Part shown: piece by piece, positions 2,773-62,634 of the stretch
Position numbering within the stretch: the stretch's first letter is position 1
Layout of the letters: each line of letters starts with the position of its first letter
Assembly (NCBI RefSeq): GCF_016026235.1
Contig: NZ_CP065613.1
Reading direction: 5' to 3' (one strand)
Source of the DNA: Escherichia coli
GTDB taxonomy: Bacteria; Pseudomonadota; Gammaproteobacteria; Enterobacterales; Enterobacteriaceae
Length of the DNA stretch: 64,000 nucleotides
Notes under the pieces: generated by a model
What the model was told of the DNA's origin: nothing
Database searches by the model: none
What the model saw: the letters and a program-made list of their open reading frames with translations, nothing else
Translations under genes and position numbers: made by a program

Positions 2773-2889
2773 AAATCAGATATGACATATAAGTTGTCAG
2801 GTCAGGAACTAGATATTTTGTGTACTTGATTTGCAAACAGCTCCGGTGTTGGTGGCGTCAAAATCGCTGAAGCGTTCCACGAAGGCCGG

Positions 2890-3110
2890 GGCAGCCCACA
2901 TGGATGTGGGCTGAGGGCGCGTCTTACAAGGACGTTTCCTCGCGCCCGACCCGGTAGCCGAAGGGGATAAGCTGAAGGTACCGCGCAGCGGCGATTTTGT
3001 TCGCCAGAGCCCGGGGGTGCAGGGGGAGGAGGCGATTGTCCTCCCCCTGCGCGCTCCTTGCGCCAGTGGCAATATGTGGCTTAGCTCATGAAAGGAGCGC
3101 AACAAGATGA
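2890..3110. other. GC-rich cluster of hairpins/palindromes of unassigned family between yohP and dusC
   Basis: Perfect or near-perfect inverted repeats: gcccacat-gg-atgtgggc (2894-2911); gggcgcg...cgcgccc (2915-2947); cagggggagga-ggcgattg-tcctccccctg (3020-3049); gcgctcctt...aaggagcgc (3051-3110). GC content far above the flanking AT-rich DNA. Confidence 0.4.
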
Positions 3111-3159
3111 TGAAGCTGAATAAGCGATTCATTGTCTCTGATAAACTGCGATTCCACTA

Positions 3160-7564: not shown

Positions 7565-7739
7565 TATTTTCTCTTTTCTGTTAATTATTGAGAATAATTA
7601 TTACTTCACTCAATAAGCTGCGGATATAACATTCTGAACCGCAGCTATTTGTGAATCCTTTCACAGTTTAAATTTCCCCACGCGCATAGCCTTAATATCA
7701 GCTCGCAATATTTATACTCTAAATAATTCGAGTTGCAGG

Positions 7740-7853
7740 AAGGCGACAAGTGAGTGAGTCCCCAGGAGCTTACATAAGTAAGTGACTGGGGTGAGCGAAC
7801 GCAGACGCAGCACATGCAACTTGAAGTATGACGAGTATATTAGCGTTCGCCTT
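7740..7853. repeat. ERIC/IRU (enterobacterial repetitive intergenic consensus) element
   Basis: Contains aagtaagtgactggggtgagcg (identical to the ERIC2 primer sequence) and gtgagtccccaggagcttacat (one mismatch to the ERIC1R complement); terminal inverted repeats aaggcga...tcgcctt. Confidence 0.85.
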
Positions 7854-10359: not shown

Positions 10360-10416
10360 GCATCCGGCATTTAGTTCCTGTCGCCGGATGCGGCTTGAAC
10401 GCCTTATCCGGCCTAC
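10360..10416. repeat. REP/BIME element
   Basis: cgcatccggca followed by gccggatgcggcttgaacgccttatccggcctac between convergent preA and mglC. Confidence 0.75.
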
Positions 10417-10475
10417 AAAACCACACAGATCATGATGTTATGTGCGTTTATGACCGAATGCGAACCACAATCACA

Positions 10476-17599: not shown

Positions 17600-18469
<870 letters not shown>

Positions 18470-18500: not shown

Positions 18501-20480
18501 TCAGAAGCGATAATCCACTGCCATAAAGTAACGACGTCCGTCTTCGTTATAGCTGTAGTCGTCACGACTGAGATCCTTGTTGCCAAGGTTCAGCACGCCT
18601 GCGCGCAGTTTGACGTCTTTAGTCACCTGCCAGGCCGCTCCGGTATTCCAGATGGTATAACCGCCAGGTGTTTTAGCCGTCGCGCTGTCGGCTCGTTTCT
18701 GCCCGGTATAGTGACCAGAAACATAGAATGACCAGTCTTCCAGCGCCAGCGGTTTCCAGTCCAACGTACCGTTAGCGGTATGGAACGGCAGATCAGATAG
18801 CGGTTTATTTTCGCCGTTGCTGACATCACGACCATCGTTGTAGGTGTAGTTGAGTGACAGTTTCCATTCATCGTTGAACGGAATTTTCAGCTCGGTTTCC
18901 ACGCCCTGAATACGTGCTTTGTTAACGTTGTAGTAGCTAAATACCGGCACACCGTTCGCTGTAAAACCAACAAAGTTTTGGTAGCCCGGTGCAGCATTGA
19001 CGTCAGACGTACGGCTGATGCTGATACGATCTTTCACATCGTTACGGAAAACGGTAACGCTGGATTCAACCCCTTCCAGCCAGCCTTCTTCACCCATGTA
19101 GTAAAGCCCCAGCTCCCAACTTTCGCTGGTTTCTGGTTTCAGATCCGGGCTACCCACAATCTTACATGCGCCACGGCAGGAATTGCTCGTCCAGTCAGGG
19201 CTAAGTTGCAACAGAGAAGGTGCTTTAAATGCCGTCGCCCAGCCCCCTTTCACCGTTACGGTGTCGGTGGCGTTATAAACCAGGTAAGCACGCGGACTCC
19301 AGTGTTCACCGTAGGTTTCATGATCGTCCATACGTACGCCGGTCGTCAGCGCCAGCGGCTCGAAGATCCGCCATTCATCTTCCACAAACAGCGCGTACTG
19401 GCTGGCAGACGTTTTGGAGCTGGTTCCCCCGGTCAGGTTCACCGCATCGCTAAGTTTGTCGTGACGCCATTCACCGCCAACCGTGAGAAACTGATTAATC
19501 GCCGTCAGCGGCAACGTGTATTTGCCGTCGACCGTATTGCTTTCGGAAGTTATCGGGCTGCTGTTGCCAGGGTTTTTGTTCTCGACTTTCTCACCGTAGT
19601 ATTTCAGTTCGCTGGTGCCGTAATCCCAACGCCCATTATGGCTGACGGAGTAGTTCTGGCGTTCCAGGCGGTTTTTGTCCAGCGAGTCGGAATCACGATC
19701 CTGACGGTCGAAACCGTATCCGGCAGTAAAATCGTGATTTTGATTCGGTGTCCAGGCAAATTCGACATTGCCGTCGCGGCTGGAGAATCCTTCAATACGC
19801 GGCGTATCTCCGGTATCGGTGGTCGTTGAGTTTTGCGGGTCATCCTTTTCACGTTTTGCCAGGCTGCCGTAAGCTTTCATTCCCAGCACACCATCAATTA
19901 ATGGTCCACTGGTAAAGAACTGACCGTTATAGGTATCACCGCGATCGCGATGTTCCTGAATGGTGGTATCGACGGTAACGGTACCCGACCATTTCTGACC
20001 GATTTTTTTGGTGATGATATTCACTACACCGCCGAGCGCATCGGAACCGTACAGCGACGACATCGGGCCACGGACCACTTCAATACGTTCGATGGAATCG
20101 ACCGGGATCCAGTTCAGATCGAAATCATTGTGGCGGAAGACGGCATTGCGGGAGTTAACGCGTTTACCGTCGACAAGAATCAGGGTGTAGCTGCTGTCCA
20201 GACCACGAATACTAACGCCCTTACGGTTATCCCCTTCGTTCGTCAGTTGTACGCCAGGCACTTCTTTGAGGACATCCTTCAGATTCTGTACCGGTTTTCG
20301 CTGCAGGTCTTCCTGGGTAATGACGCTGATACTGGCGGGTGCATCTTTAAGGTTTTGTTCAACGGAAGATGCAGTGACAACCATCGTTTCGCCATCATCA
20401 TCGACCGCTAACACAGGCCATGCACAAGAAATAGCGGACAAACACAGCCCGACCCGTACGAAAGGGTTCAACCTAAACAT
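18501..20480 (-). CDS. cirA: TonB-dependent catecholate siderophore / colicin I receptor
   Basis: 659-aa ORF with signal peptide, TonB box ETMVVTA, plug and barrel, C-terminal ...AVDYRF. Confidence 0.95.
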
Positions 20481-20649
20481 TCCATATCTCCATGAGGTAA
20501 CTACGAAAATAAAATGGGTTATCGCTCACATCTTCTTCACGTCCCCTTGCGTACGGCAGCATCGCGGTGGACTTATTTGTATGCAGGTGATCATCCCAGA
20601 AAGCCGGACCAGCCTCTGATTTGTCAGCCTTTTTTGATTGCGGCGTAAC

Positions 20650-20674
20650 GATAATGCAAACGATAACAATTATC
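20650..20674. promoter_or_regulatory. Fur box-like sequence upstream of cirA
   Basis: gataatgcaaacgataacaattatc resembles the Fur consensus GATAATGATAATCATTATC; cirA is iron/Fur regulated. Confidence 0.5.
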
Positions 20675-20725
20675 AATCCAAATGTTAAATTTTATATCCG
20701 CATGATTTGTCAGGGAAATGGAATT

Positions 20726-20751
20726 GAAAAAGCCCTCTCGGTTGAGAGGGC
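20726..20751 (-). terminator. Rho-independent terminator downstream of lysP
   Basis: Minus strand GCCCTCTC-aacc-GAGAGGGC followed by TTTTTC, 20 nt after the lysP stop. Confidence 0.7.
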
Positions 20752-20771
20752 TTAGCAAGGAAGGGAGAAAC

Positions 20772-22241
20772 TTATTTCTTATCGTTCTGCGGGAACTTCA
20801 TTTCGCTGTAGCGTACGAAGTGGGTTCCTTTAATCAGCTTGTAGCCGAACCAAATAATCAGGAACAGCGGGATACCAATATACGTTGCCGCTACGCCGCC
20901 CCAGTCAATGGTATCTTTAAGGAACGCTTCGTAGTTCTGGCCCAAAGTGATAATCAGACACAGAATGAATGCGAAGATCGGCCCCAATGGGAAGAAACCT
21001 GAACGGTACGGCAGATCGTTAATGTCGTGTCCCTGCAATACGTAACCGCGACGGAAGCGATAGTGGCTAATGGCAATCCCCAGCCAGGCGATAAAACCGG
21101 TCATCCCGGAGGTATTCAGCAGCCACAGGTATACCGTCTGGTTGCCAAACATGGAGGTCAGGAAGCACAGACCGGCAATCACCGTCGTCGCATACAGCGC
21201 ATTACGCGGCACGCCACCACGCGACAGTTTAGCGAAAATGCGCGGCGCTTTACCGTCACACGCCAGGGTGTACAGCATACGAGTAGACGCATACATACCG
21301 GAGTTACCCGCTGACAGCACCGCCGTCAGAATAACTGCGTTCATCACCGCCGCCGCAGAGAGCAGACCCGCGTGCTGGAACACCAGGGTGAACGGACTAA
21401 CGCTGATGTCTTTAACATCGTTACGCAGCAGGCTCGGATCGGTGTACGGAATAATCAGGCTGATAATCAGGATCGCGAACACATAGAACAACAGGATTCG
21501 CCAGAACACCTGACGTACCGCGCGTGGAATGTTTTTCGCCGGATCTTCGGACTCGCCTGCAGCAATACCGATCAGCTCGGTTCCCTGGAAAGAGAAGCCG
21601 ACAATCATAGCTACGCCGATCATCGCCGCAAAACCACCAGCAAACGGCGCTTCGCCGATTGTCCAGTTGCTCCAGCCCGCAGGCTGCGCGCCTTTGAAGA
21701 TACCGATAATCATCAGCACGCCAACGATGATAAAGACAATAACTGTCGTGACTTTGATCAGTGAGAACCAGTATTCCGCTTCACCAAAGCCGCGAACAGA
21801 GATGTAGTTCAGCAGGAAGATAACGCCGAGGAACAACGCACTCCAGATCCAGCCCGGTGTATCCGGGAACCACCAGCTCATGACCAGCTGAGCTGCAACC
21901 AGGTCAACGGCAATAGTCACCGCCCAGTTGTACCAGTAGTTCCAGCCCAGCGCGAAGCCAAAGCCCTCTTCAACATAGTTCTGACCGTAAGTGGCAAACG
22001 AACCGGAAACCGGCATATATGCAGCCAGTTCACCGAGACTGGTCATCAGGAAGTAAACCATCAGGCCAATCAACATATACGAGAGCAATGCCCCGCCCGG
22101 ACCTGCCTGAGAAATCGTTGCGCCAGAGGCAACAAAAAGACCTGTACCGATGGAACCGCCAATGGCAATCATCGTCAGGTGACGCGCCTTTAATTCACGG
22201 CGTAAGCCCGGCGCTTCTGTGGTTTTAGTTTCGGAAACCAT
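20772..22241 (-). CDS. lysP: Lysine-specific permease (APC family)
   Basis: 489-aa ORF MVSETKTTEAPGLRRELKARHLTMIAIGG... Confidence 0.95.
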   Translation of the reverse strand: MVSETKTTEAPGLRRELKARHLTMIAIGGSIGTGLFVASGATISQAGPGGALLSYMLIGLMVYFLMTSLGELAAYMPVSGSFATYGQNYVEEGFGFALGWNYWYNWAVTIAVDLVAAQLVMSWWFPDTPGWIWSALFLGVIFLLNYISVRGFGEAEYWFSLIKVTTVIVFIIVGVLMIIGIFKGAQPAGWSNWTIGEAPFAGGFAAMIGVAMIVGFSFQGTELIGIAAGESEDPAKNIPRAVRQVFWRILLFYVFAILIISLIIPYTDPSLLRNDVKDISVSPFTLVFQHAGLLSAAAVMNAVILTAVLSAGNSGMYASTRMLYTLACDGKAPRIFAKLSRGGVPRNALYATTVIAGLCFLTSMFGNQTVYLWLLNTSGMTGFIAWLGIAISHYRFRRGYVLQGHDINDLPYRSGFFPLGPIFAFILCLIITLGQNYEAFLKDTIDWGGVAATYIGIPLFLIIWFGYKLIKGTHFVRYSEMKFPQNDKK

Positions 22242-60042: not shown

Positions 60043-62634
60043 TCAGAACGTCCAGACCACACCCGCCTGGGTATTCCACGGCGATTCTACCCCTGCGCCA
60101 TTGCCATAGCTGACTGACAAATGACCGCTTAACGTCGGGGTAAACGATGACCTTATCCCAGCCTGATAAACGCCACTGGTTCCAGCCACATCATTATTAA
60201 ATTTGCCATCGTCATTAACTTTCACCTGGTTAGAATCGGCGTATTCCTGACGTACGGCGGCTTTCAGCCAGGGTTCCAGCGTCGTACCGTTTTGCAGGTC
60301 CATGTGATAGCTTACCGCCGTTCCCGCTTCAGCGCGTAATATCCGGGTATTTCCCACATCCGCGCGCATGCCGTTTGATAACGTGTAGTCCTGACCATCT
60401 GTGGTAAAGCCGGTAAAGGCCAGATAGGGTCTAACACTCCACAATCCGTCAACCCAACGGAACCCGCTCTCAACATGAGCACCCGCGCCGTTACTATTGT
60501 AATCGCCAAACGCTGTTGCCCCATTACTCATCTTGCCATGGATGGTGTTGGCAAAACGGTCAACTTTCACCACCCCATCAACATAGGCACCGTTCTGATG
60601 CTCCCAACCGGCATAAGCCCCCAGGGTATAGCTATCGACATTGCCTTTGCCGCCGCGATCAAAACCAATATCAGAATGAGAGTAACCAAAGAACAAGCCG
60701 CGAATTGTGCTGCTTTCTTCACGGGAGAAACGGCTATCGATACCGAGCGTCAGGCCCGTCAATGTTTGCTCAAAACCAGCTCCCGCATCAGTGGTCACGT
60801 TGTTGCGGGTGTTAATTGCCGAACTCCACATCGCCGTATCGTAACTAACGCCTTTTACGCTACCAAGACGCTCACGCACGGTGTCCAGTTCTGCATCAAA
60901 TACCAGCGGTTGTGCTGCCGCCATATTTAGCACATCAGTGGTTGAAGGGGTAATTTGCGCGCGATTCTCTGCCAGACTCCAGCTATGATTGCCATTATCC
61001 AGCAAGGTATATTCATACGTACCGATATCAACAACGCCTCCGGCATTGCCCAACGTAAATGCAGCATCACCGCCGCCCGTTGTTACCAGTGTAAGGCTAT
61101 CTCCTGCTGCCGGGCTGGCACCGGTGTCCGTCACGAATATTTTGAAATCACCTGTTGCCTGGCCAGTGACGTTAAGCTGATCGCTCTGATGATTGGCCAT
61201 ATCGGTACGCATATAAAAATTGCCGTTTCCCGACAGGGTATTGGTGGTCAACGTTATGAAATTTTCCGCACTTGCCGTCACTGATGAACGAGTCACTGGC
61301 TCAGCCATCATAATCACATTTGCGCCAGACATCGCAAGGTTGGCTAAGTTGAGGAGGGTGTTTTGGTTCGTCGTAGTGATATTGGCAATGATGGTCCATG
61401 CGCTATTTTCGAGCGAAACATCCGCTTTGCTGGTATCCACGGCACCATGCGTTCTAAAAGAAGCGCCCTCAGAAACCACGACCTTACCCACCAACATAGC
61501 GGGTGCATAATTTATTTGCGGCTTCATGACCTCAAGAATGCCATCATTCCCTCTGACTGAAACGTTAACCATTGTGCCAGCCCAGACGTTAGCGCGGCCA
61601 TTGTTGATAACCATATTTTCAGAGATGGCTTTAGAGGAATACGTTATACTTCCATTCTGATCTGATCGACCGAGATCATATACCGCATTTGCCTGCACTC
61701 TCGTACCAGTATCCTTTCCCAGCGATTGCATAGTGGCATGCTCATCAAGGATAGTGTCAATGGCCTGCGTGTCCTCCATAACAATGAGCCCGGAACCATC
61801 ATCCAGTTCATAATTTTTTGACACACCATCTTTTATACTAAATTGGCCTTTACTGTTTGTACCACTCACTTCCAGCGCATTCGTTGAGACAATTAATTTT
61901 CCGCCTGCTTTTTTATCAACGCCAGTTGCAGTCCCGCCATCCATAACCTCCAGTAAGCCGCCACTATCTACAGTAGTATTATAAGCGAAGTCATTTTCTT
62001 CAACTCGCAAACTTCCGCCGTTTTCCAACAGCATATTGTTAGCAATACCATTCTTGATTTCGAACTGACCGAGACGGTTTGTTCCGAATACCTCCATGAC
62101 CCGCGTGCTTGCTTTAATAGCACCGCCTGCTTTCTGATCTACCGCAATCGCTAATCCCCCCTCTTTAACCTCCAGTAATCCTCCCTTTTCGATAGCGGCA
62201 AGGACGGTAATCCCATCTTTTTCAACGATTAAGCGCCCGCCTTTAATCGTGGGATCATTCGCTGCGCCATAAACCTGTAGCACACCATTATTGAGGGTAG
62301 TCTGGTTTGCCGCGCCACCCATTTGAACAATTTGATAACCATCATTTAATACGGAGTATTCTGCGGTGCCATTCATTTCAATGTACTGATACCCGCCGTT
62401 AATTTCAGTATTACTACTTATACCAAATTCTTTAATATGCTGTTCTCCGCCAGGATTGATTTTCGTATTATTGGCGGTCCCATAAACCAGCTGGATATCT
62501 TTTTCCAGGACAACACCATCAACTGTCTCACCATACTCAACTGTTGATGCCAATGCTATGGGTGAATATAACGCTGTAGCCACCAGAACAGATATTGCGG
62601 AACGACAAAGAGAAACAGAACCAGATTGATGCAT
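60043..62634 (-). CDS. yejO: Type Va autotransporter (adhesin-like) YejO, uninterrupted
   Basis: 863-aa ORF with signal peptide MHQSGSVSLCRSAISVLVATALYSPIALA, repetitive Gly/Asn/Thr-rich passenger and C-terminal beta-barrel ending ...QAGVVWTF. Confidence 0.85.
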   Translation of the reverse strand: MHQSGSVSLCRSAISVLVATALYSPIALASTVEYGETVDGVVLEKDIQLVYGTANNTKINPGGEQHIKEFGISSNTEINGGYQYIEMNGTAEYSVLNDGYQIVQMGGAANQTTLNNGVLQVYGAANDPTIKGGRLIVEKDGITVLAAIEKGGLLEVKEGGLAIAVDQKAGGAIKASTRVMEVFGTNRLGQFEIKNGIANNMLLENGGSLRVEENDFAYNTTVDSGGLLEVMDGGTATGVDKKAGGKLIVSTNALEVSGTNSKGQFSIKDGVSKNYELDDGSGLIVMEDTQAIDTILDEHATMQSLGKDTGTRVQANAVYDLGRSDQNGSITYSSKAISENMVINNGRANVWAGTMVNVSVRGNDGILEVMKPQINYAPAMLVGKVVVSEGASFRTHGAVDTSKADVSLENSAWTIIANITTTNQNTLLNLANLAMSGANVIMMAEPVTRSSVTASAENFITLTTNTLSGNGNFYMRTDMANHQSDQLNVTGQATGDFKIFVTDTGASPAAGDSLTLVTTGGGDAAFTLGNAGGVVDIGTYEYTLLDNGNHSWSLAENRAQITPSTTDVLNMAAAQPLVFDAELDTVRERLGSVKGVSYDTAMWSSAINTRNNVTTDAGAGFEQTLTGLTLGIDSRFSREESSTIRGLFFGYSHSDIGFDRGGKGNVDSYTLGAYAGWEHQNGAYVDGVVKVDRFANTIHGKMSNGATAFGDYNSNGAGAHVESGFRWVDGLWSVRPYLAFTGFTTDGQDYTLSNGMRADVGNTRILRAEAGTAVSYHMDLQNGTTLEPWLKAAVRQEYADSNQVKVNDDGKFNNDVAGTSGVYQAGIRSSFTPTLSGHLSVSYGNGAGVESPWNTQAGVVWTF

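Follow-up and report, generated by a model that had tools for sequence, protein, structure and literature searches.

Is the CirA protein encoded in a 64,000-nucleotide stretch of Escherichia coli DNA (hereafter, the window) truly shorter than that of strain K-12 and, if so, what kind of change is responsible, where does it lie in the protein and what might it do? The original prediction had put K-12 CirA at 663 aa and the window protein four residues below it. The annotation of the K-12 MG1655 gene (b2155, NP_416660.1; 2244778-2246769, 1992 bp) and its translation agree with this value, and translation of both genes gave 659 aa for the window and 663 aa for K-12, with the start and the C-terminus common to both, confirming the shortfall. 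Taking all the evidence together, the best explanation, which we consider very probable, is that of an intact cirA gene carrying a common allele with a short loop 8, one side of an old recombining dimorphism, with function retained.

An intact cirA gene at its normal locus

The ORF listing of the window shows, on the minus strand, one long ORF (18501..20480) encoding 659 aa plus the stop codon, which corresponds to cirA and specifies a TonB-dependent catecholate-siderophore transporter and colicin I receptor in its short-loop-8 form. Its identity was established by a match to the NCBIfam equivalog NF007478 (catecholate siderophore receptor CirA) with 1441.4 bits against a cut-off of 745, extending over the full length (residues 1-659 aligned to profile positions 1-663), and by its near identity to the 'Colicin I receptor' chains 2HDF, 2HDI and 9NN6 of the PDB. 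Pfam domains (PF07715 Plug, 117 bits; PF00593 TonB_dep_Rec_b-barrel, 217 bits) and the structural model described below gave the TBDT architecture, an N-terminal plug and a 22-stranded β-barrel. The signal peptide (residues 1-25; 20406..20480, minus strand) is identical to that of K-12, with the mature PDB chain starting at V26 (VDDDGETM). Residues 26-60 are also the same as in K-12, including the motif ETMVVTA near the mature N-terminus, which we take to be the TonB box.

The gene is flanked by yeiG (17633-18469) and lysP (20772-22241), as in K-12, and collinearity with K-12 (positions 2226295-2291546, ~98.2-98.7% identity) extends over the entire window. The cirA-lysP intergenic region (20481..20771, minus strand for cirA), which contains the cirA promoter and leader, exhibited 99% mean column identity when we aligned the window, K-12, O157:H7 and ZH063; this promoter is presumably regulated by Fur. 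Two antisense ORFs (18978-19829 and 19950-20411) lie fully within cirA on the opposite strand; we took them to be chance ORFs. With an intact in-frame ORF, a conserved promoter and a full-length equivalog match, we saw no signs of cirA decay in the window, where cirA is an intact gene at its normal locus.

Several other differences from K-12 were found along the window. The gene yejO (60043-62634, minus strand), encoding an adhesin-like autotransporter, is an intact ORF of 863 aa, whereas the K-12 copy is a pseudogene interrupted by IS5K; in the window, K-12 positions 2288918 and 2290114 are directly joined, without IS5. Between yohP and dusC, a segment of 272 bp (2849-3120) aligns, inverted and at only 88% identity, with K-12 2229106-2229376, within collinear flanks at ~98%; we found no flanking inverted repeats able to explain this inversion. 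The yeiS-preT region (7702-7843) contains ~140 nt without K-12 counterpart, where K-12 has ~19 nt, and 80 nt of the preA-mglC intergenic region (10360-10439) align twice, which suggests a repeat-like intergenic sequence. Among relatives, E. coli WW2 carries genes for an MFS transporter and a SerB-like phosphatase directly downstream of cirA, in the place of yeiG (locus L007, 2596-4152), and the arrangement downstream of cirA at the Salmonella locus (L011, 3536-4992) is the same as in WW2. As judged from these sequences, the two genes are a variable insertion adjoining cirA within E. coli.

A replaced segment instead of a simple deletion

Global alignment of the two proteins showed that they differ in length only at K-12 residues 507-515, where ETGANGRRI (in the local context FVGF-ETGANGRRI-PVFSYY) gives way to TANGV (window residues 507-511). 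The same gap was seen on aligning the window protein with PDB chain 2HDF/2HDI. At the DNA level, the 27 nt of K-12 (GAG ACG GGC GCT AAC GGA CGG CGC ATA) face only 15 nt in the window (18948..18962, minus strand), whose codons, read directly, are ACA GCG AAC GGT GTG for T507, A508, N509, G510 and V511. Even when the 12-nt gap is set as one block, nine of the 15 aligned bases are unlike those of K-12. We rejected a single clean 12-nt deletion, since the DNA alignment requires several gaps and nine substitutions inside the block. The small in-frame indel that had been proposed is therefore right as to its frame and its four residues, but it consists of a 27-nt segment replaced by a 15-nt one and not of a single deletion. 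The K-12 turn holds two arginines, R513 and R514, and the short turn of the window has no counterpart to either.

Outside this block, the two proteins are distinguished by just three substitutions (E225D, I547L and D638N in K-12 numbering), which fall mostly in exposed loops. Over all 1980 aligned positions, the two genes show 34 nucleotide differences. Codon 225 (GAT, Asp; 19806..19808, minus strand), which is Glu in K-12 and in O157:H7 Sakai, belongs to extracellular loop 2. Codon 634 (K-12 638; 18579..18581, minus strand), Asn in the window and Asp in K-12, belongs to extracellular loop 11, between model strands 623-630 and 650-658, and L543 (K-12 I547) is located by the model in barrel strand 17. 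Asn634 was missing from all 10 of the other alleles compared, including the otherwise near-identical one of FDAARGOS_943; nevertheless, the window protein with Asn634 occurs exactly on 28 public contigs. K-12 CirA shares with that of the window the locus, start, signal peptide, plug, 22-strand barrel, the arginines R116, R436 and R490, and the cysteine pair C435/C439.

Predicted position at the tip of extracellular loop 8

To place the replaced segment on the barrel, we used an AlphaFold2 model of the window protein built on an alignment of 108 sequences of diverse homologues, taken from protein-cluster representatives; an earlier model from an 11-sequence alignment of close relatives had a mean pLDDT of 27 and was discarded. 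The retained model had a mean pLDDT of 89.6 and a pTM of 0.88, superposed on 9NN6_A with TM scores of 0.94/0.97 and an rmsd of 1.2 Å, and also matched 2HDI and 2HDF. It contains 22 barrel strands, and we numbered the loops from strand 1. Loop 2 comprises residues 211-230 in the model and 210-231, in precursor numbering, in the cryo-EM study of the Cir/MccV complex, where R436 belongs to loop 7 and R490 to loop 8 (PMC12511343); our loop assignment agrees with that of this work.

In the model, extracellular loop 8 spans residues 488-516 (18933..19019, minus strand), that is, 29 aa for 33 in K-12, between strands β15 (472-487) and β16 (517-533). It includes R490 (codon 19011-19013, minus strand), invariant in the alignment. 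Extracellular loop 7 (residues 420-449; 19134..19223, minus strand), between strands β13 (408-419) and β14 (450-462), contains C435, R436 and C439 and is the same as in K-12. Loop 8 is predicted to form a small β-hairpin with a first strand at 503-506 (FVGF), a turn at 507-511 (TANGV) and a second strand at 512-515 (PVFS), followed by Y516 and then by barrel strand 16; pLDDT values in the hairpin blocks are 92-94. According to this model, the length change is confined to the hairpin turn in the distal part of loop 8, which has five residues here versus nine, two of them arginines, in K-12. The surface loop location that had been suspected is thus borne out by both the alignment and the structural model, which locate it at the hairpin tip of loop 8.

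A widespread and already annotated allele

We estimated how common the short form is with a 140-nt probe across the loop 8 site, which matched 5422 of the 5426 complete E. coli genomes. The short form, defined by a colinear 140-nt match with at least 95% identity, was present in 1039 of these 5422 genomes (~19%), with 455 matches at 99% identity or above and 584 between 95 and 99%, whereas the other 4383 had the long form, recognized by a 152-nt match at 80-90% identity. No intermediates between the two probe classes were found among the 5422 genomes; among the full-length matches listed, all those at 97.9% or above covered 140 nt and all those at 88.8% or below covered 152 nt. In FDAARGOS_943, O157:H7 PV15-279, EC21Z-144 and CFSAN018748, PGAP labels the short form (1980 bp) 'catecholate siderophore receptor CirA'. 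In O157:H7 Sakai, ECs_3047 (NP_311074.1), annotated as 'colicin IA outer membrane receptor and translocator', likewise encodes 659 aa with the short loop 8 allele; it is identical to the window protein at 657 of 659 positions and differs only by E225 (D225 in the window) and D634 (N634 in the window). The exact window protein is itself already in NCBI as CirA of E. coli (e.g., EFK2886526.1). A literature search for discussion of the short cirA form found no paper. The short-loop-8 allele is an ordinary, widespread, already annotated and already known form of the gene.

These data bear directly on whether the shortfall might be a deletion private to this strain, an artefact of sequencing or assembly, or evidence of cirA decay. 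The length difference itself could suggest as much, and cirA is naturally inactivated in at least two other strains: in E. coli E371 the cirA gene, of the short allele, contains an internal stop (locus L004, 546-2525), and in E. coli LCP30S3_I5 cirA is split near the loop 8 region by an ISVsa5-family IS4-like element (locus L009, 546-3875). However, an identical 15-nt segment occurs in the 1039 complete genomes, the occurrence of the exact protein on 28 contigs and the 657/659 identity with Sakai refute a strain-private origin, and the window gene has the intact frame, conserved promoter and full-length equivalog match described above, so that we regard the probability of any of these three explanations as close to nil. 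The short form is no peculiarity of this genome, the same allele being common to about a fifth of complete E. coli genomes, Sakai among them.

Two further observations concern the relatives of the window and the database record of CirA. For window positions 8001-32000, only one complete genome labelled 'E. coli', FDAARGOS_943 (NZ_CP065615.1), matched at 99.8% and all others were at or below 98.8%, so the lineage of the window is sparsely represented among complete genomes, as judged from these 24-kb matches. For cirA alone, the next-best matches were O157:H7 strains at 99.5%. Many older database entries for CirA ('colicin I receptor') have 690 or 728 aa, evidently by calls of upstream start codons, and raw CirA length comparisons across databases are therefore unreliable unless the starts are checked.

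An apparently old, recombining dimorphism

To examine the history of the two forms, we aligned eleven cirA sequences, comprising nine from E. coli (six short, three long) and a single sequence each from E. albertii and Salmonella. Differences specific to the short and long classes were limited to alignment columns 1519-1545. The flanking polymorphic columns, 1485 upstream and 1578, 1602, 1638/1639 and 1716 downstream, occurred in all combinations with both classes: EC21Z-144 (short) has the downstream haplotype of K-12 (long), and the window (short) shares most of its downstream haplotype with WW2 (long). Because these flanking SNPs are shuffled between the classes, the block has been separated from its flanks by recombination within ~35 nt on each side.

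Comparison with other species showed that both turn types extend beyond E. coli. E. albertii CirA (e.g., P0040) has the length of the window protein (659 aa), a short turn (TADGV) and 96% protein identity, whereas its gene differs from that of the window at 211 of 1980 nt (10.7%), including three of the 15 nt in the block. These three differences within the block, together with flanks at species-level divergence, led us to reject a recent introgression from E. albertii. The CirA proteins of Salmonella enterica and Citrobacter (663 aa, 87-88% identity) conserve the arginine cavity residues and have long nine-residue turns like that of K-12 (ETNSRGQRV or ETNANGQRV), while the Enterobacter turn (NADGE) is of the short type. 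In CirA-like proteins at 40-48% identity, the turn has the form xxDGx. Among the 108 homologues, turn length ranged from 1 to 22 residues, with five residues as the commonest state (38 of 108), for which reason the short turn is the family-typical state; the long turn of K-12 may be a derived form or an insertion. Taken together, the alignments indicate that the short and long forms most probably are the two states of an old, sharply two-state, tightly localised and recombining loop-tip dimorphism within E. coli. This pattern would be compatible with diversifying or balancing selection on the receptor surface.

Loop 8, bacteriocin docking and the function of the short form

Loop 8 is part of the surface on which bacteriocins dock. 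Loops 7 and 8, the longest ones, both cover the Cir barrel; microcin V (MccV) opens them by 11.5 Å and 12 Å, respectively, and colicin Ia by 17 Å and 21 Å (PMC12511343). The electropositive cavity that serves both ligands is formed by one arginine each from the plug (R116), loop 7 (R436) and loop 8 (R490); these three residues matter for MccV according to mutagenesis, with R490A almost abolishing MccV binding, and they lie at the colicin Ia interface (PMC12511343). R116, R436, R490 and also C435 are all kept in the window CirA and are invariant in our alignment. Among the residues lost in the short form is R513, for which a minor contact with E61 of MccV is predicted; it is named once in the text of that study and is not among the mutants listed there (PMC12511343). 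The claim that variation in this loop is biologically meaningful is plausible. Loop 8 is one of those that admit colicin Ia and microcin V.

Given these data, we propose that the window CirA would be a functional TonB-dependent ferric-catecholate transporter that may also serve as receptor for colicins Ia/Ib and microcin V. The two forms of its loop 8 tip would represent an old dimorphism contained in a block of at most ~90 nt, which recombination would carry between E. coli backgrounds. No change affects the plug, the region of the TonB box, the disulfide of loop 7 or the docking cavity (R116/R436/R490). Transport and receptor function of the short allele are expected to be retained because the gene is intact, its promoter is conserved, the docking residues are kept and the predicted change lies at a solvent-exposed tip. 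There would be at most a modest shift in the grip of bacteriocins or phages on the loop 8 tip. A larger effect of the short allele on colicin I recognition is possible, given the reported insensitivity of Sakai to producers of colicins Ia and Ib (PMC6323730).

Whether selection acts on the tip is a separate question, and we give about even chances to the loop-length polymorphism being selectively neutral and without phenotypic effect, drifting and recombining like other surface-loop variation. The model places the change at what would be the most distal, solvent-exposed hairpin turn, and no residue of known function is lost. Both forms occur frequently, with annotation as intact CirA, and homologues tolerate turns of 1 to 22 residues. 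However, drift explains poorly the existence of two sharp haplotypes without intermediates among 5422 genomes, and equally poorly the sharing of both forms with other genera.

It has to be weighed whether the dimorphism is adaptive, maintained by frequency-dependent selection from colicin Ia/Ib, microcin V or phages docking on loops 7 and 8, with the short arginine-free turn materially lowering susceptibility to at least one of them, for instance as a contribution to the insensitivity of O157:H7 to colicins Ia/Ib. We consider this rather unlikely, although several observations point in its direction. The divergence is extreme yet local (9 of 15 nt and 12 nt of length versus ~1.5% over the whole gene), recombination has apparently acted within ~35 nt on both sides of the block, both turn forms are found across species and the length of the hairpin turn is highly variable in the family. 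In K-12, a contact of the tip residue R513 with MccV is predicted, and ligand binding shifts loop 8 by 12-21 Å (PMC12511343). Sakai, which carries the short allele, resisted producers of colicins Ia and Ib and was inhibited by colicin V producers (PMC6323730), and the resistance of Salmonella to colicin Ib has been ascribed in a bioRxiv preprint partly to natural differences in the CirA sequence, with no loop-level analysis in that paper. On the other side, the experimentally critical R116, R436 and R490 are intact, the authors of the Sakai study explained its resistance by O-antigen shielding or immunity (PMC6323730), and plant-made ColIa and ColIb are reported to have a broad spectrum against the Big-7 STEC panel, in a review text without per-strain data (PMC6465592). 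A literature search on CirA as a phage receptor gave passing mentions only. Overall, the evidence on bacteriocin phenotypes is mixed and indirect, no source isolating the loop 8 tip. The likelihood that remains beyond neutrality and adaptation belongs to something in between.

In its strongest form, the selective explanation would make the two-state tip a balanced, trans-specific receptor polymorphism under pressure from colicin Ia/Ib, microcin V or phages, in which the short form cuts colicin I docking. We think this improbable; if true, it would provide a receptor-level account of the colicin Ia/Ib insensitivity of O157:H7, now ascribed to O-antigen shielding.

Significance

As a discovery, the short allele carries little weight, as it became public with the genome of O157:H7 Sakai and routinely receives the annotation CirA. 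Its interest is that K-12 numbering and the structures 2HDF, 2HDI and 9NN6 do not represent the tip of loop 8 in about one fifth of E. coli. This is relevant to the engineering of colicin Ia, colicin Ib and microcin V derivatives, or of CirA-targeted antibodies and vaccines, against STEC, and to the reading of cirA variants in surveys of cefiderocol resistance. If the tip dimorphism does alter susceptibility to bacteriocins, it would offer a small example of a receptor polymorphism kept by bacterial warfare.
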